NCBI GenBank assembly: GCA_016204995.1
Contig: JACQJR010000001.1
Location: 369,132 to 433,131 of the forward strand
Length of the DNA: 64,000 bases
Reading direction: 5' to 3'
Origin: Candidatus Microgenomates bacterium
Lineage (GTDB): Bacteria > Patescibacteriota > Microgenomatia > UBA8517 > JACQJR01
Part shown: positions 4,296-61,580 of the stretch, in pieces
How positions within the stretch are numbered: position 1 is the first letter of the stretch
How the letters are laid out: every line of letters begins with the position of its first letter
Position numbers and translations under genes: made by a program
The notes under the pieces: generated by a model
Database searches by the model: none
Told to the model about the DNA's origin: nothing
The model's input: the letters and a program-made list of their open reading frames with translations, nothing else

Positions 4296-4609
4296 TTTTT
4301 AATCCTGCCCGTCTTTTTGGACTTTTTCTCGCTAGGGAATAAATCAATGGTCTGACCTTTTTTAAGGTAAACTATGGCCTTAACTCGATCTGATAATTTC
4401 TGAAAATTCCTACGATTTCGTACCCGTTTAGTCTTACCAGCGAGTTTTATAGTTCTTACTTTGACCACCTCTACTCCAAAAGTCTCTTCCACAGTTTGGC
4501 TAATCTGATGCTTGTTAGCCGCCCAATCTACTTCAAAAGTAAAGGCGTTTAGATTTTCAACAATTTTAGTTGATTTTTCCGTTAATATTGGTTTGATTAA
4601 AACGTTCAT
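4292..4609 (-). CDS. rplW: 50S ribosomal protein L23
   Basis: 105 aa; position between L4 and L2. Confidence 0.85.
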
Positions 4610-5265
4610 TTATTCTCCTTTTGACCCAAGAAAGTTTTTTTCAAAAGTTCTACCCCCGCTTCAGTGATAACCACTTTAGGATAGATAATTAGCTGATAAG
4701 CATTAATTTGGGAAGCTGGCATCAGTTCTACGCTTGCTATATTCCCCAAACCTCTCGCTAATTTTTCTTCGCCGCCATGCAAAACTAAAACTTTAGTTTT
4801 AGTTAAACCTAATTTATCTAACCATTTTTGCGCGGTTTTAGTTTTTCCCTCCAAGGCCGTTGCTTTAACCACTATTAAGTCTTTACTTGCCAGTTTTTCT
4901 GACAAGGCGACAGTTGTGGCTTGACGAGCCAGCCTCTTAGATAAACTCAACTGACGTTTTAGACCAGTTGGGCCATGAGCAATGCCGCCGCCGACAAAAA
5001 TAGGGGCTTTTTTCATGCCATGTCTGGCCCGGCCAGTTCCCTTTTGACGAAACATTTTAGCCGTGGTGCCAACTATTTCAGCTCTGGTTTTCACCTTATG
5101 GGTACCCTTGTGTTGTCTATCCTGATAAACATAGAAAGCCTGGGCCAGTAATTTATCATTTGGTTTCTGGCCAAATAACTCGTCAGGCAAAGACAATTTG
5201 GCAGCAGTTTTTCCTGTAGTTGGCCCCGATTTAATCGGGGTTGGTTGTATAATTATCTGTTTCAT
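4606..5265 (-). CDS. rplD: 50S ribosomal protein L4 (coding sequence contains a copy of the 17-bp palindrome CCCCGATTTAATCGGGG)
   Basis: 219 aa; L4-like; position between L3 and L23; palindrome at 5224-5240 encodes PIKSG near the N-terminus. Confidence 0.88.
   Translation of the reverse strand: MKQIIIQPTPIKSGPTTGKTAAKLSLPDELFGQKPNDKLLAQAFYVYQDRQHKGTHKVKTRAEIVGTTAKMFRQKGTGRARHGMKKAPIFVGGGIAHGPTGLKRQLSLSKRLARQATTVALSEKLASKDLIVVKATALEGKTKTAQKWLDKLGLTKTKVLVLHGGEEKLARGLGNIASVELMPASQINAYQLIIYPKVVITEAGVELLKKTFLGQKENK
5224..5240. repeat. 17-bp palindrome CCCCGATTTAATCGGGG, copy 1 of 4 (others at 6231-6247, 26712-26727 and 26921-26937 with 1-2 mismatches)
   Basis: a 13-bp core CCGATTTAATCGG would not be expected even once by chance in 64 kb; three copies lie within coding sequence and encode PIKSG or PLKSE. 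Confidence 0.8.
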
Positions 5266-6137: not shown

Positions 6138-6252
6138 TAAATGTGGAGTGTCAGACCGAACACACTTTTCAGGAAGTAACGAACTCTTCCATTAACAATA
6201 AGTATATCAAAAAGAAGCTAATATGGCAAGCTCCGATTTAATCGGAGTAAGC

Positions 6253-23202: not shown

Positions 23203-24240
23203 TTACAACAAGTATTTGTCAATGTTCTGTTGATGTTCTTCGGAGTTGGCCGCATAGTGGATTTGGCCGGTATTATCATGCAGATAGAACCAATAAGGAG
23301 AATCTTGGGGACTCGCTGCAGCTTTAATTGAGGACAGTCCAGGACTGGCAATTGGTCCGGGCGGCAAACCGCGATGTAAATAAGTATTGTAAGGAGAATT
23401 TATTTTTTTATCCGCCACTGTGGCTGGTTCCCACCAGGAACAATTTTCGTCCAGATGACGACCAGCCTTTGGCTGGGAGATTTGACCTGCCTGCGCAGGC
23501 AGGCATTTGAGATTGACAACTGCGTACTGCAGTGTCGCATCAGCTTGCAAAGGCCAACCAGCCTTTATTCTTTTCAGTAAAATACCGGCGACAATCGGCC
23601 GCTCCTCATCGGTTCTGGTTTCCCGCTCTATGATGGAAGCCAAGGTTACTAATTTTTCCAAAGTTAAATCTTGTTGCTTGGCTTGGGAAATTATGTCTGC
23701 GGAAACTTTTTTATCAAAAGTATCACGCAGTTTTTTCACCACTGCCCCGGCAGTAGCATTTCTGCTCAACAAATAAGTATCGGGGAAAAGGAAACCTTCC
23801 ATGCCTTGCGACTCTTTCATAAATTCTTTCAAAAAAATCTGCTGTTTTTCTGAAGTTAACTCCAAAGCAGTCGCTATTTTTTGGGCGATTTCTTCCCGGC
23901 GAAAACCTTCCGGAATAGTCACCCATAGAGCCACTGGCCCACGAATTAACTCTGCTACTAATTGAGGTAATGGTAAATTTTTAGTAATTCTAAAATCGCC
24001 GGCCGGGATTTTTTTAGTCCGATCGGCAATGGAAACGTAAACTTTAAAAGCCAAAGAAGAACGAATAAAACCTTGTTTTTCTAACTCATCACCGATTTGA
24101 GAAGCGCTTTCGCCTTTGATAATCACAAAGGGATAGTAAATTTTATCAGTGGAAGGAGCAATGGTAGCATCTCGCCACCACCACATCACGAGTAGGGGCA
24201 AGGCAATGATTATCAGAAGAAATGTAACAAGACGTTTCAT
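23203..24240 (-). CDS. mltG: endolytic murein transglycosylase MltG/YceG family; carries an 18-bp palindromic insertion encoding LPAQAG
   Basis: 345 aa; N-terminal TM; YceG-like core ...GEGFLFPDTYLL...LASIIERET...; synteny alaS...ruvX-small ORF-mltG as in Firmicutes. Confidence 0.85.
   Translation of the reverse strand: MKRLVTFLLIIIALPLLVMWWWRDATIAPSTDKIYYPFVIIKGESASQIGDELEKQGFIRSSLAFKVYVSIADRTKKIPAGDFRITKNLPLPQLVAELIRGPVALWVTIPEGFRREEIAQKIATALELTSEKQQIFLKEFMKESQGMEGFLFPDTYLLSRNATAGAVVKKLRDTFDKKVSADIISQAKQQDLTLEKLVTLASIIERETRTDEERPIVAGILLKRIKAGWPLQADATLQYAVVNLKCLPAQAGQISQPKAGRHLDENCSWWEPATVADKKINSPYNTYLHRGLPPGPIASPGLSSIKAAASPQDSPYWFYLHDNTGQIHYAANSEEHQQNIDKYLL
23486..23503. repeat. 18-bp perfect palindrome CCTGCCTGCGCAGGCAGG (core of the 36-bp element), in-frame in mltG
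   Basis: matches the two 9-bp arms of the 36-bp element without the inner 18 bp; encodes LPAQAG. Confidence 0.8.
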
Positions 24241-24443
24241 ATTTCCGACAACAGTGCCCGACGATATTTTTTGGCTTTACTATCAAACAGAAAAACACGG
24301 CCGCAACTACAAGTAACTTTTTCCCAACCCTTGACTTTGCTTTTTTGAGGTTTATGAGGATTTAAATCCCGGCCGCAGCCGACACAGCGGCCCTGGGAGA
24401 TGAGCCAAGCTTGAACAGGAGAAATTAATTGCTTAATCACCAT
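24237..24443 (-). CDS. small zinc-ribbon protein (CxxC...CxC)
   Basis: 68 aa; CVGCGRDLNPH...VTCSCGRVF; sits between ruvX and mltG where Firmicutes carry a small ORF. Confidence 0.4.
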   Translation of the reverse strand: MVIKQLISPVQAWLISQGRCVGCGRDLNPHKPQKSKVKGWEKVTCSCGRVFLFDSKAKKYRRALLSEI

Positions 24444-24819
24444 GTGTCTCTAGATATGATTGTAGCATAACGGCGGCGGCAAATGCATCTTCCATGCTTT
24501 TTCGCCTGACCCTGGCCATGCCAGAAGCAATAGCTAACTTTTGAGCATCGTAAGTGGTTAAGGTTTCATCCCACAAAATCACCTTTATGCCTTGATGTTT
24601 TAGTTTATCAGCTACCTGTTTTATTATCTTTTCCATCTCTCCGCTTGGCAGGCCGATTACCACCTCCAATGCTTGTTCTCTTCTGGTTAAATCCGTGATT
24701 TTTTGGATCAATTTAGCTAAATTACTTTCTTTGATCACCACCAGCGGCTCGGCCAAAATTCCTACGCCCCGGGCCACTCCGGTTTTAATTTTGCCAATAT
24801 CTAATCCCAGTCTAATCAT
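24433..24819 (-). CDS. ruvX: RuvX/YqgF-family Holliday-junction resolvase-like pre-16S rRNA nuclease
   Basis: 128 aa; MIRLGLDIGKIKTGVARGVGILAEPLVVIK... RNase H-fold YqgF signature. Confidence 0.8.
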   Translation of the reverse strand: MIRLGLDIGKIKTGVARGVGILAEPLVVIKESNLAKLIQKITDLTRREQALEVVIGLPSGEMEKIIKQVADKLKHQGIKVILWDETLTTYDAQKLAIASGMARVRRKSMEDAFAAAVMLQSYLETHGD

Positions 24820-25505
24820 ATACTTGCCCCCGACTGCATCGGGGCTAACTCCGCTTTCACTATTAGCCGCCGCAAATAAGTTCCCGGCGGCACGCAGGTA
24901 ATTAAAGTCAGGTGGGGTTTATCGTTAGGTTGGGCCAGCACCGAGATTTCGGTCGGCGCCACCTCAAACATCTCTGAAATGACAAAACGATAAGTGATGC
25001 CATCATAGCTAACTATTATTTCATCTCCTTTCGCCAAAGTTGGCAGGGTAGAAAAAATAGATAAATAATTGGTAGGGCTAAAAAACTGCGGCAAAGTAGA
25101 ATGGCCAAAAATGACAGCATTACCCACTCGGCCTGGTATGGCCGTCCCCTTATAATGAATTAAATTTTTACTTAAGTCTTCGCCGGCAATTTCCACTGTC
25201 GCCTGGCTAATTTTTAATTTAGGAATTGATAAAGTATAGTATTTAATTTGAGAATTAGCTTCTGGCCGGTCGGGGAAATCCAAGCTGCCTACAAACCAAT
25301 TGGAAGCCCGAGTTAAATCTACGGGGCTATATTTTTGGCTATTGCTGTCTCCTACCGGAGATAAAAATTTAGAATCACTATCGCCCCGACTAAAGTTAGG
25401 GGCAGTAAACAATTCGTATGAAATAATAGGGAAAACGGCGCTGGTTAACACCAAGCCTCCCCCGATAATTAAAAAAATAGCCAATAACCGAAGCCAAAAC
25501 ATCAT
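24816..25505 (-). CDS. sortase-family transpeptidase
   Basis: 229 aa; N-terminal TM anchor; catalytic His (VIFGHS), TLITC cysteine motif, downstream Arg (RRLIV). Confidence 0.75.
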   Translation of the reverse strand: MMFWLRLLAIFLIIGGGLVLTSAVFPIISYELFTAPNFSRGDSDSKFLSPVGDSNSQKYSPVDLTRASNWFVGSLDFPDRPEANSQIKYYTLSIPKLKISQATVEIAGEDLSKNLIHYKGTAIPGRVGNAVIFGHSTLPQFFSPTNYLSIFSTLPTLAKGDEIIVSYDGITYRFVISEMFEVAPTEISVLAQPNDKPHLTLITCVPPGTYLRRLIVKAELAPMQSGASI

Positions 25506-27715
25506 TGTTCGGCAACCACCTTAATGGTAATGTTGTCGCTTTTTTGAGGCAGAAAATCGGACAGAAATGGCAAACGGGGAGAAAATTTAATGGAAGTACG
25601 AGAATAGCCTGGTAAAGCAGCCAGTTTTGTCTTAACCTCCGATTGGCTTTTACCAGCCAGTTGCGAAACCAGCTGTCTTTGATTAATCTGCGGCAGTAAA
25701 TTAGCTTGCGCTGTCACATTAATAGTCAGCACCTTATTTTTTTCTTTTTTCTCACCTGTCTGGCTAATGGAACTAAAACTAGCTGCTATATCACCCTCTT
25801 CTAAATTAAACTTCTCTGGCACTTTGGGACGCAAAACAGTTAATAGCTGGCTGTTTAACTGATCATGCGGTATGGTTACTGCTATTCCTTCCGCTTCTAG
25901 GTTTAACTTCAAGGTTTGTGCTTCCTCACCGACATTATGAGAAAATGAACGTCGCACAATGTTCATTTGGATTGATTCATTAATGACTGTTTCATCGCCA
26001 CTAACCTTCTGTCTAATATCTGTCTTAAATTTGTCGGTCAGTTCTGCCAACAGGTCTGTTTCCAGTTTTTGTCTATCTTCTTTGGCCACAGCCGGTACTT
26101 CTCGCGAGCTGCCGCCGGTAAAAACATTATCGTTTTTGGCAGCAAAACTATTGGTGGAAAAATTAGTGATCGCAAAACTATTGCCAGAGGCTAAATTGTA
26201 TTGGGTACCAATATCAGCCGCACTAATTACGGCTTTGGCTTGGCCTAGCACAATGTTGGGCAAAATGCCAGAGGCGGAGGCCACCGTCACCTGACTATCA
26301 AGACTGAACTTTAAACCGTTAGGACCAACTAAAATGGTATGAGCGGGAAAAGTTTTGGGCTGGGCGGTGTTATTGAAAATTATGACCTCTCCTTTGGCCC
26401 GATCTCCCACAGTTTTAGAACCGGTAGTGGAAGTAGTCTTTTCACCTTCCACGGTAGAAGAAATGGTCCGGCCGGCCACAATACCATCTCCGCTCCCACC
26501 AGTGGGATCAACCTGCAAAGTCAATTTTTCCTCAATTTTTTTAGGAGCAATATAAATAGTGAGCTGGGCCTTGGGTACAAAATACCACACTAAAGTAAAA
26601 ACTAAAATCGTTAATCCCCCTAAAATTAACCATATCTTCAACTTGCCTAAAAACCCACTTTTAGCAGAAACCGCATTAAAGAGGGAATTTAGTTTGGAAC
26701 CGGTCTCCGATCCTGATTTAATCGGGGCAGGCCCGCCTGCACCAACAGGCCTGTCTGCGCCAGCAGGCTCCACCACTTCCTCGTGGGTTTCCTGGAAACC
26801 GAAATCTTCTACTGGTGGTGTGACAGCAACTGGCAATTGCGGCTCTGGAGTCACTGAAGAAACCTTTTCCGTAGCAATTTCTTCCTCTACTACTGGTCTC
26901 CGGCCCTGGAAGGTCTCTGGCTCCGATTTAAGCGGGGCTGGTTCTGTCGCAGTGGTTAATTCCGGTTGAACCGGGGCTTCAGTGGAAGCAGCGACTGAAA
27001 TAGCGGATAATAACTCGTCCGATGTCAATCTTTCAATCCTGGGAGTATGCAGGAAAAAGGCCGAAGGCCATTCCCAGTTAACTAAATTTTGCCGTGCCTC
27101 CTCCAACTCGTTATTATTTCTGTTGTATAAAACTAACCGCGCAGGCAGTGATTCTCCGACGCCAAAACGGGATAAGCCCTCGGTAATATCATCTGCCAGC
27201 GATATACTGCGGCTGACCAGATGGGAATTAACAATTTTACCCGATCTAACCAATAACACTTCCGCTTCCTCTTCTTCAATACCAACTAAAATGGCCGAAA
27301 GGGGTGAGCCTTCTTTGTTTTTCAAAAAATGAATAATCGCTTCCGGTACTACCACAAAGCCTTTAGGTTTAAGTTCTAATTTTTCGCACAAGAGACGCAG
27401 GTGGGCCAGTTTTTCAGGAACAATATTACCATCTTCTATCCAGAAATTAGGCAAGCCAAAAACTACTGATAAAATTTCCTCCGGCGGCTCATTCATACTA
27501 CCTACTGCGGCTGATAAACTGTCATCAGCCGCCTGGACAAAAGATTCACTGTCCTGCCAAGCATCAGTCGTGCCGGCTGCCATTAATTCACCCTGACCGG
27601 ATAGAGTACGCCACAAACCGGCCTGAATCCAATTTTTACCAATCACAAAGGAAACAAATACTTCTTGCGGAGTTTCTTTTTTACCAATAATTTCCGTAAT
27701 GCTGGGCAATTTCAT
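25502..27715 (-). CDS. bitopic membrane protein: N-terminal cytoplasmic FtsA/PilM-like actin-fold domain, Pro-rich linker carrying repeat-element insertions, TM helix, large extracytoplasmic domain
   Basis: 737 aa; N-terminal region resembles PilM/FtsA subdomains (VFVSFVIGKNWIQAG..., AILVGIEEEEAEVLLVRSGKIV); TM KIWLILGGLTILVFTLVWYFV; the linker contains PAGADRPVGAG and PIKSG encoded by the palindromic elements. Confidence 0.5.
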   Translation of the reverse strand: MKLPSITEIIGKKETPQEVFVSFVIGKNWIQAGLWRTLSGQGELMAAGTTDAWQDSESFVQAADDSLSAAVGSMNEPPEEILSVVFGLPNFWIEDGNIVPEKLAHLRLLCEKLELKPKGFVVVPEAIIHFLKNKEGSPLSAILVGIEEEEAEVLLVRSGKIVNSHLVSRSISLADDITEGLSRFGVGESLPARLVLYNRNNNELEEARQNLVNWEWPSAFFLHTPRIERLTSDELLSAISVAASTEAPVQPELTTATEPAPLKSEPETFQGRRPVVEEEIATEKVSSVTPEPQLPVAVTPPVEDFGFQETHEEVVEPAGADRPVGAGGPAPIKSGSETGSKLNSLFNAVSAKSGFLGKLKIWLILGGLTILVFTLVWYFVPKAQLTIYIAPKKIEEKLTLQVDPTGGSGDGIVAGRTISSTVEGEKTTSTTGSKTVGDRAKGEVIIFNNTAQPKTFPAHTILVGPNGLKFSLDSQVTVASASGILPNIVLGQAKAVISAADIGTQYNLASGNSFAITNFSTNSFAAKNDNVFTGGSSREVPAVAKEDRQKLETDLLAELTDKFKTDIRQKVSGDETVINESIQMNIVRRSFSHNVGEEAQTLKLNLEAEGIAVTIPHDQLNSQLLTVLRPKVPEKFNLEEGDIAASFSSISQTGEKKEKNKVLTINVTAQANLLPQINQRQLVSQLAGKSQSEVKTKLAALPGYSRTSIKFSPRLPFLSDFLPQKSDNITIKVVAEQ
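26741..26781. repeat. degenerate copy of the 36-bp element in the linker of the 737-aa membrane protein gene
   Basis: GCAGGCCCGCCTGCACCAACAGGCCTGTCTGCGCCAGCAGGC shares TGTCTGCGCCAGCAGGC with the element; encodes EPAGADRPVGAG in the same relative frame. Confidence 0.6.
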
Positions 27716-27729
27716 TTTGGCGAGTATCT

Positions 27730-29076
27730 CTATTTTACACCTTGGCGGGAAACTTGTTGATGCCGACTAAATTCTTCGTTAAACTGTTGTCTATCAATTT
27801 TCTGACCTTTAACCGCAAATAATTCTTCCAAAACTTCTAAAGGAAAACCATAAGTTTGATAAAGATCAAAAGCAATCTTGCCGTCAATTTGAGCAATTTT
27901 TTCAATCTCTGCCAAACCTCTCTCTAAAGTTTTACCAAATTTATCCAGCTCTTGGCGAATAACATCAGCTATCTCATCTTTTTTAGAAATATCTAACATA
28001 TCGGTACCAGCGTATGTGTCAATAACACTACCACTGACTACTGCTAAATCTTGAGGTTTTTCCGTGGAACCGCAGATGCTATTAAATTTTACCGCCGCTC
28101 TTCTTAATAGTCTTCTTAAGACATAACCTTGCATTTTGTTGGAAGGTAGAATATCACTGGCAATAATAAAAGTAGCCGCTTTCATATGATCGGTAATGAT
28201 CTCAAATTGCTCTGATACAGCGATATCTTGGTAACTTCTTCCACTAATATTTTCTATTGCAGTAATAATTTTACTAAATAAGTCTGTCTCAAATATATCA
28301 GGGTTATCATTTGTTGCCGCTGTCATTCTCTCTAAACCGCCGCCAAAATCCACGTTTTTTTGGGTAAGTTCTTGTAAAGTTCCGTCCGCTTGCTTTTGAT
28401 ATTGGATAAAAACCGAGTTGCCGATTTCTACAAATCTGCCGCAATCGCAATTAGGATGACATTTATCTCCAAATCTTGGATCATGTTCCACTTGAGTAAA
28501 TTCATAAAATACTTCACTGTCCGGACCGCCGATTTCGCCGGCTGGCATTTGCTCCGGTGTGCCCGAACGAGACCACCAGTTTTTTTCTACGCCGTAGGCG
28601 AAAATATGATCCTCGGGGACGCCTAAACTTTTCCAGATTTCATAAGACTCATTATCTTTTGGTACTCCACTATTGCCACCTGTCCCGAGCGAAGCCGAGG
28701 GATCAAAAATACTGACATACAATTTTTCGTGAGATAGCTTTAACTCTTCTGTTAAAAATTGCCAAAACCAGGGAAGTTGTTCTTTTTTAAAATAATCTCC
28801 CAAAGACCAATTACCTAACATTTCAAAAAAAGTAGTATGGCGATTATCACCTACTTCTTCTATATCCTGTGCTCTAAAACATTTTTGGGAATTAACTAGT
28901 CTTTTTCCTTGCGGATGCGGCTTACCCAATAGATAGGGAACTAAAGGCTGCATGCCAGCACTGGTAAATAAAGTGGAAGGGTCATTTTCCGGAACAAGAG
29001 ATGCACTAGGGATTTCCTGATGCCCATATCTCACAAAAAATTCAATATATTTTCTCCGCACCTCTTCTGAAGTCAT
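27730..29076 (-). CDS. alaS: alanine--tRNA ligase, N-terminal catalytic/tRNA-recognition half only (448 aa; no editing or C-Ala domain)
   Basis: FTSAGM, FFEMLGNWSLGDYFK class-II AlaRS motifs; ORF ends after the tRNA-recognition region. Confidence 0.85.
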   Translation of the reverse strand: MTSEEVRRKYIEFFVRYGHQEIPSASLVPENDPSTLFTSAGMQPLVPYLLGKPHPQGKRLVNSQKCFRAQDIEEVGDNRHTTFFEMLGNWSLGDYFKKEQLPWFWQFLTEELKLSHEKLYVSIFDPSASLGTGGNSGVPKDNESYEIWKSLGVPEDHIFAYGVEKNWWSRSGTPEQMPAGEIGGPDSEVFYEFTQVEHDPRFGDKCHPNCDCGRFVEIGNSVFIQYQKQADGTLQELTQKNVDFGGGLERMTAATNDNPDIFETDLFSKIITAIENISGRSYQDIAVSEQFEIITDHMKAATFIIASDILPSNKMQGYVLRRLLRRAAVKFNSICGSTEKPQDLAVVSGSVIDTYAGTDMLDISKKDEIADVIRQELDKFGKTLERGLAEIEKIAQIDGKIAFDLYQTYGFPLEVLEELFAVKGQKIDRQQFNEEFSRHQQVSRQGVK

Positions 29077-29806: not shown

Positions 29807-30445
29807 ATGGCAAAAGCTACCACCAAACCAAAAGGGGCCACTTCTTATAAAGAAACTGCTTTTGGCATTATTCCCCATTCAAAACTTATCAAACTAGAAT
29901 TGGAAGGCATTAAAAGAGGACTGGAATATATTTATGGAATTATTCAGAGAAGAAAAGCTACTAACGTTACACCAAATTTAATCTGCAAGCTCCATCTAAT
30001 TTCCTTCGGTTGGATTTTCCCTACCTGGGCAGGAAAGTATAGAAAAATTCAAGTAACCTTTTCCGGAAAAGAAACACCATCTTATTATCAGTTACCAGAA
30101 CTCATTACAAATCTTTGCCAGGATTTAGAGGAACGATTAAAACATTTACCAGAACCCCTTAATGATGCTTTCATTATTGAAGTGGTAAAACTTTTAGCCT
30201 GGTTTCAACATCAATTTGTCTTCATTCATCCGTTTCAAGACTACAACGGCAGAACCGCCAGAATGTTAACAAGCTTCATCCTATTAAAACTTAATTTACC
30301 TCCAATTGAGCTTAAAGCAGAAACAGGTCTGGACAGAAAAAAATACCTCAAGGCTATGCAAAAAGCTGATGGGGGAAACTACTCGCTGCTTGAAACGCTT
30401 ATTAAGCGTGCTCTATCAGAATCATTAGAAAAAGTGAGGGGATAA
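29807..30445 (+). CDS. Fic/Doc-family protein (Fic motif variant HPFQDYNGRTAR)
   Basis: 212 aa; HPFxDxNGRxxR core matches the Fic HxFx(D/E)GNGRxxR motif with Gly to Tyr substitution. Confidence 0.75.
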   Translation: MAKATTKPKGATSYKETAFGIIPHSKLIKLELEGIKRGLEYIYGIIQRRKATNVTPNLICKLHLISFGWIFPTWAGKYRKIQVTFSGKETPSYYQLPELITNLCQDLEERLKHLPEPLNDAFIIEVVKLLAWFQHQFVFIHPFQDYNGRTARMLTSFILLKLNLPPIELKAETGLDRKKYLKAMQKADGGNYSLLETLIKRALSESLEKVRG

Positions 30446-31596: not shown

Positions 31597-31962
31597 TTAA
31601 GCCAGGGGTTTACCTTGGCGGTGAAAGACCCGGCGGCCGCGTTCTTGCAGAGCCGTAATATGCTCCAAAGAATCTTTTTGGGTGTGAACTACCACGTCAT
31701 CAGTTTGATATTGGGCAGTACTAGTCACAGAATTTTCATATTCTGATGTAGAATTTTTACCGCTTTTTAAGACATGCTCTAATAACCCCCAGGCGGACAG
31801 AGTAGAAGTTTGGGCAGATTGCGAAATAGTATGGTTAATTTTTTTGACCGTGCCTCTGACATCTTTTAAGATAAAAATGACTTGTACTCCCACAAATACC
31901 AACAGGGCTGTTAAAATTAAGACCACCGCTCCCAATAATAATTGAACGCCAGCAATTTCCAT
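31597..31962 (-). CDS. small membrane protein, hypothetical
   Basis: 121 aa; single N-terminal TM. Confidence 0.4.
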   Translation of the reverse strand: MEIAGVQLLLGAVVLILTALLVFVGVQVIFILKDVRGTVKKINHTISQSAQTSTLSAWGLLEHVLKSGKNSTSEYENSVTSTAQYQTDDVVVHTQKDSLEHITALQERGRRVFHRQGKPLA

Positions 31963-32555
31963 TATGGTATGGCTACTTCTTTTCTGGTAGCCTTGCCGCT
32001 TCTGGATAAAGCTTCAATAGTCAAAGTGGTGCCGGTTTGGGCGGTTAAGTTAAATTGAAAACTGCCATTATCTTCTACCAACACCACCTCGTTATTAATC
32101 ACAACGCGGCTATCAGCGTTAGTGGTGCCTTTAATTAAAACTGAATCACCTTTTCGTTCCATACCTACGGTCAATGGCGGCGGAACGGCATATACTAAAT
32201 ACTGTTTAGTCAGATAAAAAACTAACAGCCCAATAGTAAACACTGCTACTGCCGCTATGGTTAGTCGGGGAGTCCAGATAGCCCGTGGAACTACTGTCTC
32301 CACTTTTTCCTCTTCTGCAAAATCACGACGCAGAAGTGCCAAAGCCAATTCCTCGCTCACTCCTACTGCCCCGGCAATGTTTCTGACAAAGCCGCGCGCG
32401 ACAGCAAAATTTGGCACCATTTGCCACTCGCCCTTTTCAATCGCCAGAATATAACGTGGTTTAATTTTGGTGGCGAAAGACAAGCGATCAATAGACACCC
32501 GATGTTTTTTTCTGGCTTCTTGAATAATTTCTCCCAAAGTCTTCATATAGGTCAA
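31962..32555 (-). CDS. RodZ-like HTH (XRE-type) bitopic membrane protein
   Basis: 197 aa; N-terminal HTH LGEIIQEARKKHRVSIDRLSFATKI, central TM, C-terminal beta-rich domain; adjacent to ftsK. Confidence 0.55.
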   Translation of the reverse strand: MTYMKTLGEIIQEARKKHRVSIDRLSFATKIKPRYILAIEKGEWQMVPNFAVARGFVRNIAGAVGVSEELALALLRRDFAEEEKVETVVPRAIWTPRLTIAAVAVFTIGLLVFYLTKQYLVYAVPPPLTVGMERKGDSVLIKGTTNADSRVVINNEVVLVEDNGSFQFNLTAQTGTTLTIEALSRSGKATRKEVAIP

Positions 32556-34612
32556 TTTCCCGATAGAAATTCTTCAGCATTTTTGACTAACACTTCGCGA
32601 GGCTTAGCTCCTTCGGCCGGCCCGACCACTCCTGACCCTTCCAGTTGATCTAAAATTCTGGCGGCCCGGGCATAGCCGATAGATAATCTTCTTTGTAAGA
32701 GCGAAGCCGAAGCCCGATCGTATTGGCAAATAATGCGCACTGCCTGATCAAATAAATCATCTCGTTCTTCTACCCCGCCATCTCCCCCCACACCGCTTGT
32801 CACATATTTAGTCGGCATGGTTACCACCTCTTCCGTATATTGCGGCGTCACTCCATTACGCTTTAAGAAATCAATCACCCGATTAATCTCCGCATCTGAC
32901 ACGAATGACCCTTGAATCCGAGTGGGTTTGGCTTGCTCCGGAGGAATAAACAACATATCGCCCCGACCCAATAATTTCTCGGCCCCAGGCACATCTAAAA
33001 TCACCCGCGAATCAACTTGAGACGCTACGGCAAAAGCGGCTCGGGCCGGGATGTTGGCTTTAATTAAACCAGTAATAATATCAACTGATGGCCTTTGAGT
33101 AGCAATCAACATGTGAATGCCGGTCGCGCGGGACATTTGGGCAATTCTGGTGACTGTTTCCTCCACTTCGGCTGGGGCAAATAACATAATATCCGCTAGC
33201 TCGTCAATGAACAAAACTATGTAAGGCAAGGCTTGAAAGCCGGACAATTCGTTAAAACTTTCAATGTTGCGGGCCCCTACCTGGGCAAACAGTTTATAGC
33301 GGCGGTCCATTTCCGCCATGGTCCATTTTAAGGCAGACAAAACTTTTTCCGGTTCCACAATCACTGGACTTAATAAATGGGGAATGCCGTTGTAGCCGGT
33401 CAATTCCACCCGTTTAGGATCCACCATAATAAATTTCACTTCATCCGGCGAAGCCCTAAATAGAATTGAACAGATAAAAGAGTTAATGGCGACAGACTTG
33501 CCGCTGCCGGTTTGGCCGGCAATTAACATGTGGGGCATCCTAGCTAGATCTGTCACAATCGGATTACCGGAAACATCCAAGCCCATAGACAACCCTAATT
33601 TGGATTTGAGATTACGCATATTTTCTGCTTCTAAAATTCGTTTTAAACCCACAAATTCCGGACTTCTATTGGGCAATTCTATGCCGATTAGGGAACGGCC
33701 GGGGATAGGCGCTTCAATTCTGATTTGTCCGGTAGGAGCAGCCAAAGCTAGGGCTAAATCCCGATCCAGAGCGGTAATGCGAGACAGCTTGGTTCCCAGT
33801 CCTACTTCCAAAGCATATTGAGTAACTGTCGGGCCTAAATTAACTTCTACTACTCTGGCAGTAATACCAAAAGATTCCAGAGTCCGTTCAATAATAGAAG
33901 CATGCTGTTTAATATCGCCCCGCTCGGCTTTGCCGCCGACGCTGTCAGATAAAAGCGATAAGGGCGGATATTGCCAGACCCGGGCTTGACCGGGGACATT
34001 ACTGACTAAAGTTTGAGAAAGGGGTTGCTCTTTATTATTTTTGACCGGCGAAGACGGTTTATTCTGCTCGGCTCCGGAAACCCGCAAATTAGAACGCGTT
34101 GCCAGCTGCGGTCTCTTACCAAATAAAATCCCCTTCAAAAAATTAAAGGCAGATAAAATTCCGCCAATAATCTGATCGGTAGAGGTGTTGAAAAAGACCA
34201 AGATACCAACGATGGCACCGGCTAAAAATAGTAAAAAGGCGCCGGGGGCGGTAATTAATGAAGTAACGCCGGCAAAAGCATTTTGTCCGGCCAGGCCTGC
34301 TTGGGTCAAACTGATCGCACAGACAAAAAAAAGTAAAAATCCCACAAAAACATTAGGCGAGTTTAGAGGAGTTTTAAAACGGGAGAATAAAAAACCAGTA
34401 ACGATCAATAAAAATGGCAATAAGAATGTGGCCCAACCCACCATTTGGAAAAGCAAATCATTTAAAAGGGCCAGCCACATCCCCTGGCGGGAAAAGGAGA
34501 CAATTACTAAAACCGCCAAAATTAAAAAGGTAATTTGGGCGATAGAATAAACAGTCTGCTTCTTAATGCGGAGTTTAAAGGCTCGGACAGTCAACTTCCT
34601 TCTTCTGGACAT
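32552..34612 (-). CDS. ftsK: DNA translocase FtsK/SpoIIIE
   Basis: 686 aa; N-terminal TM helices; motor domain with HMLIAGQTGSGKS Walker A and FIMVDPKRVEL. Confidence 0.92.
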   Translation of the reverse strand: MSRRRKLTVRAFKLRIKKQTVYSIAQITFLILAVLVIVSFSRQGMWLALLNDLLFQMVGWATFLLPFLLIVTGFLFSRFKTPLNSPNVFVGFLLFFVCAISLTQAGLAGQNAFAGVTSLITAPGAFLLFLAGAIVGILVFFNTSTDQIIGGILSAFNFLKGILFGKRPQLATRSNLRVSGAEQNKPSSPVKNNKEQPLSQTLVSNVPGQARVWQYPPLSLLSDSVGGKAERGDIKQHASIIERTLESFGITARVVEVNLGPTVTQYALEVGLGTKLSRITALDRDLALALAAPTGQIRIEAPIPGRSLIGIELPNRSPEFVGLKRILEAENMRNLKSKLGLSMGLDVSGNPIVTDLARMPHMLIAGQTGSGKSVAINSFICSILFRASPDEVKFIMVDPKRVELTGYNGIPHLLSPVIVEPEKVLSALKWTMAEMDRRYKLFAQVGARNIESFNELSGFQALPYIVLFIDELADIMLFAPAEVEETVTRIAQMSRATGIHMLIATQRPSVDIITGLIKANIPARAAFAVASQVDSRVILDVPGAEKLLGRGDMLFIPPEQAKPTRIQGSFVSDAEINRVIDFLKRNGVTPQYTEEVVTMPTKYVTSGVGGDGGVEERDDLFDQAVRIICQYDRASASLLQRRLSIGYARAARILDQLEGSGVVGPAEGAKPREVLVKNAEEFLSGN

Positions 34613-59950: not shown

Positions 59951-60165
59951 AAAAAACATCTCAACCCAGAATTGTCACTTTTGCCTTGTTAACTACCATT
60001 ACTATGCTCACCTGGGTAACTTTTGAAGTCTGGCATTCTTTTAACAAACCAGCTCCAATCCAAGTGGAACAAAAGCTGCTGGCGCCTCTTAATCCTCAAT
60101 TAGATACTAAAACTATAGAAGAACTACGGGATAAATTATTTTTTGAAGGAGGAGTAAACCCATGA
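59947..60165 (+). CDS. small membrane protein in the pilus-like cluster
   Basis: 72 aa with one TM; translationally coupled to its neighbours by overlaps. Confidence 0.35.
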   Translation: MKKTSQPRIVTFALLTTITMLTWVTFEVWHSFNKPAPIQVEQKLLAPLNPQLDTKTIEELRDKLFFEGGVNP

Positions 60166-61580
60166 GGAAAGAACGGACTATTCCCACCGTCATTGGTCTA
60201 GTGTTACTGCTGGCCGGGGTAGGAATTTCCGTTCTGCTAGTTCAGCGCCAGCAGTTTTTTAAACTAACGGCGGCGCCGGAAATTACCCCCAAAGATGTCA
60301 GAATCACCAATGTAACTGATGGCGGCTTTACTGTTTCCTGGATGACAGACAAAGAAACCATCGGTTTTGTTTCCTTTGGCGATTCCACCTCATTGGGTCA
60401 GATAGCCCAAGATGATCAAGGGACCAAGAGTTCTCCCTTACACCATGTTACCATCTCCAATTTATCTACCAATACTCGCTACTTTTTCAAAATCGGCTCC
60501 GATCGCGACACCTTTGACCAGGATGGGAAGCCGTGGGAGCAAAAAACCGCGACACAACTTTCACCTCGGACAGCCGATGTCATCTCCGGTACTGTCAAAA
60601 ATAGCCAAGGCGCGCCGGCAAGCGACGCTTTAGTCTATGTCACCCTGCCGCAAGCCGCCCCTCTCTCTACCACCACCGATAGTTCCGGTAGTTTTTCTTT
60701 GTCACTGGCCCCTGCCCGCACCACCAATTTATCTTCCTATGTCACCTACGATAAAAATAATGCCCTCTTGTCTATTTTCGTCCAGGCAGGAAGCGGTCAA
60801 GTATCTTCGGCCCAAGTAGCAGCCGCTAGCGCTCACCCTGTCCCGCCTTTAATTTTGGGCCAGACTCATGATTTTCGTCGCTTAAGCCAGACTGGCGAAG
60901 CTACCTCTCCCGGCGCTGATTTAGCCTTACCATCGGCAGCGCCGACTGCTTCGCCCGAAAGCGCCAGCTCGGGTTTTAATTTAAACCCGATTGCTTCCAG
61001 CTCGCCCGCACCCTCGGTAGATAAACTAACTATTGATAATCCCAAAGAGGGAGAAAATATCAGCACTAAAACTCCGGAGTTTCGTGGTCAGGGTCCTAAA
61101 GGCGTTAAAGTTAACTTAACTCTTAACTCCACTACCCCCATCACCGGTACCGCCACAGTAGCCGCAAATGGCACTTGGACCTGGACGCCGCCCCAAACCT
61201 TAACTACCGGTAGTCACATCCTAATTGCCACTCTTACCGATAGCAAAGGTCAAAAACAAACCACTTCGCGCAATTTTAGCGTCTTAGCCAAAGCGGCTAA
61301 TTTACCAGCTTTTACCGCCACCGGTTCGGCTCAAGCCAGCCCCGGTCCAACCGGGGCCAGTCCCAGTGCCACGCCTCGCGTTACTGCTAGTCCTTCTGCT
61401 TCACCTCGAGCTAGTATTATACCCACTGTGGCCCCTCGCATCTCTATGCCTTCTACCGAATCTGGGGTACCCGTTTCTGGCGACTTGACAAATACTATTG
61501 CAGTTTTCATACTGGGTATAACCTCCATTTTTGGAGGGGCTCTCTTGTTCATAAAAACAAGAGGGAATAATTACCAATAA
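60162..61580 (+). CDS. cell-surface protein: N-terminal signal anchor, FN3-like domain, carboxypeptidase-regulatory-like domain, Thr/Ser/Pro-rich spacers, C-terminal TM plus basic tail (sortase-substrate-like architecture)
   Basis: 472 aa; VRITNVTDGGFTVSWMTDKETIGFVSFG (FN3/purple-acid-phosphatase N-terminal-like); ISGTVKNSQGAPASDALVYV (CarboxypepD_reg-like); C-terminus ...VPVSGDLTNTIAVFILGITSIFGGALLFIKTRGNNYQ. Confidence 0.55.
   Translation: MRKERTIPTVIGLVLLLAGVGISVLLVQRQQFFKLTAAPEITPKDVRITNVTDGGFTVSWMTDKETIGFVSFGDSTSLGQIAQDDQGTKSSPLHHVTISNLSTNTRYFFKIGSDRDTFDQDGKPWEQKTATQLSPRTADVISGTVKNSQGAPASDALVYVTLPQAAPLSTTTDSSGSFSLSLAPARTTNLSSYVTYDKNNALLSIFVQAGSGQVSSAQVAAASAHPVPPLILGQTHDFRRLSQTGEATSPGADLALPSAAPTASPESASSGFNLNPIASSSPAPSVDKLTIDNPKEGENISTKTPEFRGQGPKGVKVNLTLNSTTPITGTATVAANGTWTWTPPQTLTTGSHILIATLTDSKGQKQTTSRNFSVLAKAANLPAFTATGSAQASPGPTGASPSATPRVTASPSASPRASIIPTVAPRISMPSTESGVPVSGDLTNTIAVFILGITSIFGGALLFIKTRGNNYQ

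Follow-up and report, generated by a model that had tools for sequence, protein, structure and literature searches.

Bacteria of the Candidate Phyla Radiation (CPR) account for a large share of bacterial diversity, and their cell biology is almost uncharted. To our knowledge, these organisms lack many of the standard factors for envelope and division, or have them in a form that cannot be recognised. Several described systems come close to the protein reported here. The 1C and 2B subdomains of FtsA mediate polymerisation, contacts with FtsN and the late divisome, and FtsZ binding. GspL carries a nucleotide-free actin-like domain that is joined covalently, via one transmembrane helix, to an ectodomain. 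Relatives of phage baseplate J build wedges and rings by self-association. We analysed 64,000 nucleotides from the genome of an ultra-small Candidatus Microgenomates bacterium (the window) and characterised a gene at positions 25502 to 27715. Its 737-residue product joins an actin-like domain, which is derived from FtsA, through a single transmembrane helix to an ectodomain that resembles baseplate J. The fusion is fixed throughout Microgenomates, and other CPR lineages encode its two halves as adjacent genes. The gene and its parts are as follows.

25502..27715, minus strand: fusion gene (open reading frame [ORF] list, ATG start) for a 737-residue bitopic membrane protein with a pseudo-FtsA core, a linker, a transmembrane helix and a baseplate-J-like ectodomain
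26978..27715, minus strand: predicted cytoplasmic ASKHA (acetate and sugar kinase, Hsp70, actin) domain, actin-like, residues 1-246 (AlphaFold2 [AF2], Foldseek, FtsA profile match, hhalign, motif loss)
26636..26977, minus strand: linker, residues 247-360, predicted to be disordered and cytoplasmic, poorly conserved (composition and length comparison, 73 homologues)
26576..26635, minus strand: single transmembrane helix, residues 361-380, IWLILGGLTILVFTLVWYFV, predicted N-in/C-out (hydropathy scan, charge bias, no signal peptide)
25505..26575, minus strand: predicted extracytoplasmic baseplate-J/gp47-like domain, residues 381-737, 357 residues (AF2, Foldseek against PDB, BFVD)
26087..26392, minus strand: beta-barrel sub-domain, residues 442-543, with sequence-level homology to Baseplate_J (TRI-2 profile match; PF04865 and PHROG_6 in homologues)

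We compared the fusion protein with these known systems. It shares with FtsA and its partners FtsN and FtsQ an ASKHA fold, sequence homology, a position at the inner membrane face and a functional tie to a protein that crosses the membrane once and has a domain outside. Unlike FtsA, it lacks subdomains 1C and 2B, the nucleotide motifs and the C-terminal amphipathic membrane-targeting helix, and its membrane link is a covalently attached transmembrane helix. The window protein passes none of the curated FtsA hidden Markov model (HMM) thresholds (TIGR01174, or PF14450 with PF02491), and the similarity is at the level of profiles only. PilM-PilN (non-covalently) and GspL/EpsL (covalently) likewise join an actin-like domain to one transmembrane helix and an ectodomain, and the cytoplasmic domain of GspL is also nucleotide-free. 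In contrast to the fusion, PilN, PilO and GspL have ferredoxin-like folds, and no pilus or secretion genes lie near the fusion. The window protein has no match to the PilM models (TIGR01175, PF11104) and no pilN, pilO or pilB nearby. It also lacks the GspL Pfam domains and a gsp operon (GspE, GspM), and the likeness to GspL is one of analogous architecture only.

The ectodomain shares barrel homology, the order of sub-domains over about 350 residues and a similar size with the baseplate J/gp47, P2 gpJ and T4 gp6-type proteins (PF04865, PHROG_6). The fusion protein differs from these wedge proteins in that it appears to be membrane-anchored and extracellular, is encoded at a housekeeping locus, and is fused to or paired with an FtsA-like protein. 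MreB-RodZ and ZipA also involve a bitopic protein that links a cytoskeletal module to the envelope, and the long tether rich in Pro and Glu recalls the ZipA linker, but these proteins have no sequence or fold relation to the fusion and their domains are oriented differently to the membrane. Taken singly, the components are familiar: an ASKHA/FtsA domain, a Baseplate_J domain, and the tethering of an actin-like domain to a partner that is bitopic. Our literature search found no description of this family, of the fusion or of its pairing with FtsA-like proteins, nor did it find this combination or a membrane-anchored extracellular baseplate-J fold at a housekeeping locus. Public annotation names family members 'hypothetical protein' or 'baseplate J/gp47 family protein'.

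NCBI lists a protein of identical sequence as MBI4058997.1, under the name 'hypothetical protein HY404_02025 [Candidatus Microgenomates bacterium]'. Single-sequence searches with the window protein returned nothing useful from Pfam, NCBIfam, PHROGs or PDB sequences, and the Pfam and NCBIfam results were empty even at E<=1. All informative evidence came from family profiles and structure models. The first-round homologues (n=76) were 676-821 residues long, 25-55% identical and mostly covered in full, and hydropathy placed exactly one transmembrane helix near the middle of every one. The N-terminal side of this helix is more basic than the C-terminal side across the family (average Lys plus Arg 3.1 vs 2.0), and the fusion protein has no N-terminal signal peptide. 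These two features suggest that the N-terminal part is cytoplasmic and the C-terminal 357 residues are outside, and the N-in/C-out topology should hold for the fusion protein. An earlier note on this DNA, made from the sequence alone, had described the same ORF with one transmembrane helix, and the ORF list and hydropathy agree with it. The note had also proposed a 360-residue ectodomain of unknown type. A large outside domain is indeed predicted, with a length of 357 residues (381-737) and a baseplate-J-like character.

We examined the N-terminal domain by structure prediction and with a profile built from residues 1-248 of 28 homologues. The AF2 model of residues 1-248 (predicted local distance difference test [pLDDT] 91.9, predicted TM-score [pTM] 0.86) has a beta-beta-beta-alpha-beta-alpha-beta-alpha topology that occurs twice, which is the two-lobed ASKHA fold. 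Foldseek matched this model to 630 PDB chains at E<=1e-3, and the top ones were all ASKHA structures. The matches included PPX/GppA, PilM, FtsA, EutJ and sugar kinases, with the highest TM-scores for PilM (TMq 0.56-0.61). The best PDB sequence match of the profile was FtsA 3wt0 (E 8e-4); the alignment consisted of two collinear blocks, one for each half of the actin fold. When the profile was run against 5.8 billion proteins, the sole match outside the family was P0098 (E 3.8e-6), a 422-residue protein that carries FtsA, PilM and MreB Pfam domains.

Free-standing FtsA-like proteins of CPR bacteria provided a closer comparison. These proteins match TIGR01174 at E 5e-37 (below the equivalog cutoff) vs 1e-14 for pilM, match PDB FtsA at E 3.5e-15, and are named 'cell division FtsA domain-containing protein' at NCBI. 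Using hhalign, we aligned the fused domain to three of them with a probability of 97.9% (E 4.5e-13, 230 columns), such that residues 1-236 of the window protein spanned residues 1-373 of the target. A HMMER alignment of the profile to the free-standing gene upstream of P0112 fell into three collinear blocks. It passed over residues ~100-190 and ~256-315 of the target, where FtsA has its subdomains 1C (the SHS2 insert) and 2B. Fused and free-standing proteins have in common a W...F/L.H/K.P.V signature near the C-terminus of the domain. These comparisons show that the N-terminal domain is derived from FtsA and reduced to a 1A+2A core without 1C and 2B.

The nucleotide-binding motifs distinguish the two groups. 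The free-standing proteins retain DIGT, IDxGGGTTD and LCGGGS. In the fused domain, column counts showed that the phosphate-1 Asp is absent from 73/73 sequences. At phosphate-2, Gly replaces Asp in 59 of the 73 and the place of the GGG is taken by acidic residues, such as the EEEE of the window protein, or by variable ones, and the adenosine GG has become Tyr-Asn/Asp. Because these motifs have been lost across the family, the fused domain cannot be an ATPase, and by its motifs it is best described as a minimal pseudo-ATPase ASKHA core. The absence of 1C and 2B also makes FtsA-type polymerisation and FtsZ binding doubtful. Thus, the actin fold that had been proposed for the N-terminal roughly 240 residues is borne out by the AF2 model and the Foldseek matches, and the question of FtsA or PilM kinship for residues 1-250 is answered in favour of FtsA by profile and hhalign. 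The proposal that this domain forms a cytoplasmic filament or ATPase does not agree with the motif loss in 73 sequences or with the missing subdomains.

We next consider the ectodomain. The AF2 model of residues 378-737 has a pLDDT of 88.8 and a pTM of 0.64. Its top Foldseek matches in the PDB were J/gp47-type wedge proteins (E 8e-8 to 3e-4, probability 1.0) from phages XM1, phi812, A-1(L), Pa193, Mu and phiCD508 and from diffocin TRI-2. These alignments covered 340-390 columns but gave TM-scores of ~0.2 and root-mean-square deviations above 20 A, so the rigid-body agreement is limited roughly to the barrel and the whole-length likeness is one of sub-domain order. The only unrelated fold at similar significance was the GlxA barrel. 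In BFVD, which holds viral predicted structures, nearly all named matches were baseplate J or wedge proteins. Sequence profiles located the homology in the barrel. The full family profile matched TRI-2 (8v3w_E) at E 2.8e-5 over residues 442-543, and Baseplate_J is among the precomputed Pfam assignments of about 25 homologues. Rescanning homologues at 30-38% identity with PF04865 gave up to 34.9 bits against a gathering score of 21.1, with coverage of profile positions 16-114 of 255 only, and PHROG_6 ('baseplate wedge subunit') matched homologues at E 5e-10. The window protein itself has neither the PF04865 nor a PHROG match. By profiles and modelled structure, the ectodomain resembles the baseplate J/gp47 wedge proteins.

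The ectodomain (380-737 in the earlier proposal) had been suggested to resemble the FtsQ/DivIB POTRA and beta domains or PilN/PilO, in keeping with a system of the FtsA-FtsQ or PilM-PilN/PilO type. These identities were rejected: no FtsQ, DivIB, PilN or PilO was among the 50 listed Foldseek PDB matches. Tail and baseplate genes (gp25/W, gpI, hub/spike, sheath, tube) were not found beside the fusion gene in any locus.

The age and distribution of the fusion were assessed by scanning one genome per GTDB species with a 12-sequence alignment of the C-terminal domain. The scan yielded 49 loci, 48 of them of the Microgenomates type (Woese-, Blackburn-, Shapiro-, Gottesman- and Levybacteria). All 48 encode the N-terminal domain, transmembrane helix and C-terminal domain in a single ORF of ~690-840 residues, one of which is cut by a contig end, and the 48 species-representative genomes include complete chromosomes. 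In gene order, alaS lies directly upstream of the fusion wherever the contig reaches that far, a sortase gene lies directly downstream in 48/48, and ruvX and mltG come next in most. Of 52 loci in which the distance was measured, 44 have the sortase start within -38 to +21 nt of the fusion stop codon. We then searched exhaustively with HMMER and the C-domain profile, counting representative clusters at 50% identity. The number of clusters retrieved was 11,721 with a cutoff of E<=1e-3, 9,311 with E<=1e-10 and 3,233 with E<=1e-30. Fused-type proteins or their fragments made up the best 150, all of which lay below 1e-98, and the fusion is carried by more than 150 clusters in total. The fusion is therefore real, old and fixed throughout Microgenomates, and the covalent link through a transmembrane helix to a big external domain that the earlier note had pointed out is a conserved trait of this group.

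The records for L010, L011, L014, L018 and about 15 more of the Microgenomates loci are titled 'uncultured Gammaproteobacteria bacterium', which appears to be a placeholder or a submission error. Their synteny is that of Microgenomates and their proteins are 30-48% identical.

The C-domain profile also retrieved proteins that have no actin-like domain. In several distant CPR loci, such a protein is encoded next to a separate FtsA-like gene.

L058, Saccharibacteria: alaS, further on an ftsA-like gene (420 residues, motifs intact), the transmembrane plus baseplate-J gene (532 residues), ruvX and mltG; sortase absent
L005, CPR contig: FtsA-like gene (422 residues) immediately before a 641-residue transmembrane plus baseplate-J gene, then infA
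L007, Paceibacterota: alaS, a divergent actin-like gene (390 residues), a 430-residue transmembrane plus baseplate-J gene, infA

The two genes of the Saccharibacteria locus abut, with the start codon of the second adjoining the stop of the first. Unfused partners often carry a different conserved N-terminal cytoplasmic domain of ~85 residues (L058 7827-8100; residues 1-90 of P0111 and P0112). This domain starts MxxxxIYIDVEDDIT and follows the pattern M..(I/L)YI(D/E)(V/L)(E/D)(D/E)(D/E)(I/V)T.IV...K.... It had no Pfam or PDB sequence match, and hhalign against the ASKHA domain gave a probability below 1%. It may be a docking site for the free-standing FtsA-like protein. Because the two-gene state occurs in distant CPR lineages, the functional link between the halves is strengthened; separate adjacent halves in some lineages and a fusion in others are classic Rosetta-stone evidence that the two work together. 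Separate genes in relatives had been named in advance as a sign of an artefactual fusion. Such genes do occur in distant CPR, and they point to a genuine evolutionary fusion.

Two further unfused homologues showed different gene contexts. One transmembrane plus baseplate-J homologue with a short N-terminal tail has an overlapping sortase gene downstream. Another distant, short-tailed homologue, P0115 (L060 2-2516), directly follows a gene fragment for a PilB/GspE-like ATPase (SSDIHVEAEEKGI), and nothing besides this locus hinted at a link to pili or secretion. We also looked for ftsZ and further actin-like genes that would place the FtsA-like gene as a canonical ftsA, and found none in the window or in the fetched loci.

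The neighbours of the fusion gene in the window were assigned by Pfam searches and from the ORF list.

24816..25505, minus strand: sortase gene, translationally coupled to the fusion gene by the overlap (Pfam Sortase E 5e-26; TIGR01076 51.4 vs cutoff 39.35)
24433..24819, minus strand: ruvX (YqgF) (Pfam RuvX E 4e-25; position conserved)
23203..24240, minus strand: mltG (YceG), peptidoglycan glycan-strand terminase homologue (Pfam YceG E 1.6e-75; position conserved)
27730..29076, minus strand: alaS, 448 residues (Pfam tRNA-synt_2c E 3.5e-110)
31962..32555, minus strand: HTH_25 plus transmembrane protein of RodZ-like architecture (Pfam HTH_25 E 1.9e-13)
32552..34612, minus strand: ftsK (ORF list; conserved upstream context)

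The alaS gene is 15 nt upstream of the fusion gene, and 4-nt overlaps link the fusion gene to the sortase gene and the sortase gene to ruvX. The overlap with the sortase and the alaS...ruvX-mltG setting had been noted before, and the ORF coordinates and the Pfam matches of these four neighbours support both. Most Microgenomates loci also have ftsK paired with an HTH_25 gene a few kb upstream of the fusion; in the window, the RodZ-like gene overlaps ftsK by 4 nt. The sortase retains the catalytic His, the Cys of TLITC and the Arg, and appears catalytically intact by these residues.

The conserved architecture and synteny led us to a model in which the fusion protein acts as a transmembrane coupler for division or wall morphogenesis, a reading to which we assign a probability of roughly 45%. 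In this model we infer the localisation, the oligomerisation and the division or wall role of a protein whose architecture, homologies, motif loss, conserved fusion, two-gene counterpart and synteny are observed. The ancestral state would be the pair seen in Saccharibacteria and some loci of the Parcubacteria type: adjacent FtsA-like and transmembrane plus baseplate-J genes, usually after alaS and before ruvX-mltG or infA. The ancestral FtsA-family protein, ~390-420 residues long, would have been intact and, by its motifs, competent for ATP. Its partner would have had a small cytoplasmic domain, a transmembrane helix and a baseplate-J-like ectodomain. In Microgenomates, the FtsA-like gene would then have been fused onto the membrane protein and trimmed to a bare ASKHA core, and the sortase gene would have been placed directly downstream. 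This order of pairing, fusion, reduction of the actin half and addition of the sortase is the simplest history.

In the present-day coupler, the pseudo-FtsA core may serve as a non-catalytic docking module for a cytoskeletal or divisome partner, kept at the membrane by the flexible linker of 60-190 residues. Like phage wedge proteins, the ectodomain probably self-associates, in this case into an oligomeric platform; alternatively, its partner would be a component of the wall or the surface. The protein would thereby pass a positional cue from the machinery of division or the cytoskeleton across to the membrane's outer face. The activities positioned there could include peptidoglycan processing by MltG and sortase-mediated anchoring of surface proteins. 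Its mode of action would parallel FtsA-FtsN/FtsQ, PilM-PilN or GspL, with another kind of ectodomain. The idea in the earlier note that the protein couples the cytoplasm to the cell exterior remains the best reading. A more ambitious version of the model is possible, though we hold it only tentatively: the FtsA-family protein and the bitopic baseplate-J platform might form a two-part trans-envelope module that is found across CPR bacteria and belongs to the core of division or wall assembly, with Microgenomates encoding it as one polypeptide plus a sortase.

Several observations weigh against the coupler model. The proposed function rests on gene neighbourhood, and since alaS-ruvX-mltG is a widely conserved housekeeping cluster, the adjacency to mltG may be historical and not functional. 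A core without 1C and 2B is not expected to play a direct FtsA-like role. Rigid-body agreement with baseplate J extends only over the barrel of ~100 residues, with whole-length TM-scores of ~0.2. One locus (L009) has a transmembrane plus baseplate-J gene without an FtsA-like neighbour. In another (L062, 6001-8726), ruvX and mltG come directly after the ftsA-like gene for P0098 and a baseplate-J gene is missing from the interval, which indicates that the link between FtsA-like genes and ruvX-mltG can exist without a baseplate-J partner at that site.

We weighed three functional alternatives to a coupler for division or wall morphogenesis. The first is a partnership with the sortase, in which the protein positions or regulates this enzyme, for instance so that surface proteins are anchored mainly at one site, or presents its ectodomain as a sortase-linked surface scaffold. 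The constant position of the sortase gene in Microgenomates, the chain of 4-nt overlaps and the overlapping sortase gene beside the short-tailed homologue speak for it, as do the catalytic residues of the sortase and the presence in the window of a surface protein with a sorting-like signal. Transmembrane plus baseplate-J proteins are, however, far more widespread, and the loci of the Saccharibacteria and Parcubacteria type have no adjacent sortase. The fusion protein itself also lacks a C-terminal LPXTG, transmembrane segment and basic tail. We consider this alternative unlikely.

We rejected the fusion protein as a sortase substrate. It ends LPQKSDNITIKVVAEQ without a C-terminal transmembrane helix, and it has no LPXTG-like motif with a hydrophobic segment and a basic tail behind it. 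A conserved W-x-LPKA-x-V-T-x-Y-x-x-PK stretch right after the transmembrane helix was considered as a pilin-type YPK lysine motif. The aligned sequences spoke against this, since the Lys varies and lineages that have no sortase show a similar strand. The surface protein mentioned above is encoded at 60162-61580 on the plus strand. It has 472 residues with fn3, CarboxypepD_reg and Big_13 domains, and its C-terminus consists of VPVSG, a hydrophobic helix and KTRGNNYQ. This arrangement resembles a sortase-type sorting signal, although its motif is non-canonical, and makes the protein a plausible candidate substrate of the sortase that adjoins the fusion gene.

The second alternative is a phage-derived surface structure: a domesticated baseplate protein used for attachment to a host in episymbiosis, for receptor mimicry or defence, or left as a tailocin remnant. 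We know of no role for FtsA-family proteins in attachment or defence, and the link to such a protein therefore argues against this idea. So do the fixed housekeeping position in 48 species and the absence of sheath, tube, spike, gp25 and other tail genes nearby in any locus. In its favour, no relatives of the ectodomain could be detected other than baseplate wedge proteins of phages and tailocins, and CPR bacteria are episymbionts with unusual surface structures (PMC11665869). On balance, a surface structure of this kind seems quite unlikely.

The third alternative is an alignment module for pili or secretion, with a PilM/GspL-type platform that docks a PilB/GspE-type ATPase and an ectodomain in place of PilN/PilO, as part of type IV pilus or competence machinery. 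CPR bacteria depend on type IV pilus or competence machinery. The high TM-scores of PilM against the N-domain model, the precedent of GspL and the position of P0115 behind a PilB/GspE-like ATPase fragment fit this view. Sequence profiles nevertheless prefer FtsA: TIGR01174 outscores pilM for the free-standing relatives, and PDB FtsA is the top match of the fused domain. In addition, pil and gsp genes are absent beside the fusion gene in the window and in the 48 Microgenomates loci, and no PilN, PilO or GspL match to the ectodomain was present among the listed Foldseek matches. We regard such a module as distinctly unlikely.

Finally, an assembly or annotation artefact in which a frameshift or mis-assembly joined two genes would be in keeping with the separate halves of distant CPR lineages, but it is refuted by the recurrence of the same ORF with its central transmembrane helix in 76 homologues from independent samples, in 48 genomes and in more than 150 clusters at 50% identity, and by the remodelling of the fused N-terminal domain, whose lack of 1C and 2B does not fit a simple read-through.

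These findings give domain-level identities to an abundant family of 'hypothetical' proteins (3,233 clusters at E<=1e-30; 11,721 at E<=1e-3) and tie it to an FtsA-family protein by gene fusion and conserved adjacency. They also suggest, from profiles and models, that a phage baseplate fold can occur as a membrane-anchored extracellular domain encoded at a housekeeping locus. If the CPR-wide module proves true, the baseplate-J fold would for the first time be seen in a cellular role other than injection, and the divisome would have a component of a new type. A role in division or wall assembly would make the protein a CPR-specific target and a new case in which the structural proteins of phages and the machinery of cells have undergone exchange. 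A surface structure would instead bear on contact between episymbiont and host. The hypothesis is testable in Saccharibacteria, which are genetically tractable and carry the two-gene version.

Two features of the neighbourhood set the window apart from related loci. The alaS product aligns to residues 1-466 of a 616-residue orthologue and lacks the C-terminal ~150 residues (the tRNA_SAD region), which were found nowhere else in the 64-kb window; orthologues in the 48 related loci have 580-650 residues. AlaRS could be truncated by nature in this genome, or another region could encode the part that is missing. The second feature is a Fic/DOC-family gene (29807-30445, plus strand), which interrupts the minus-strand housekeeping block between alaS and the gene of RodZ-like architecture. 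This gene was not in the gene lists of the related loci that we examined.

The linker varies among homologues, with a length of 58-186 residues (median 119, 73 homologues) and a composition rich in Glu (13.9%), Pro (9.2%) and Lys (8.8%). In the window, the linker DNA holds three in-frame copies of a dispersed small palindrome with the consensus GCCCCGNTTNAANCGG.

26702..26731, no strand assigned: palindrome copy in the linker, encodes PAPIKSGSE; absent from all homologues
26912..26941, no strand assigned: palindrome copy in the linker, encodes PAPLKSEPE; absent from all homologues
26961..26978, no strand assigned: third, shorter copy at the boundary of the N-terminal domain and the linker, encodes APVQPE

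The pattern occurs nine times at six loci in the window, against an expected 0.10 (both strands, <=1 mismatch). The encoded peptides PAPLKS, PAPIKS and APVQPE were found in only 1 of the 265 collected proteins and in none of the other 264. Because they are absent from all homologues, the palindromes appear to be recent in-frame insertions that are specific to this genome and tolerated in disordered regions. The accumulation of palindromic insertions in the linker had been recognised in the earlier note, and the three copies agree with it. Other window copies of the GCCCCGATTTAATCGGGGC-like palindrome lie at 5223-5241, 6230-6245 and 61339-61357. Coding sequence contains at least five of the copies: the three of the linker, a fourth in an ORF at 4606-5265 and a fifth in the surface-protein gene at 60162-61580.

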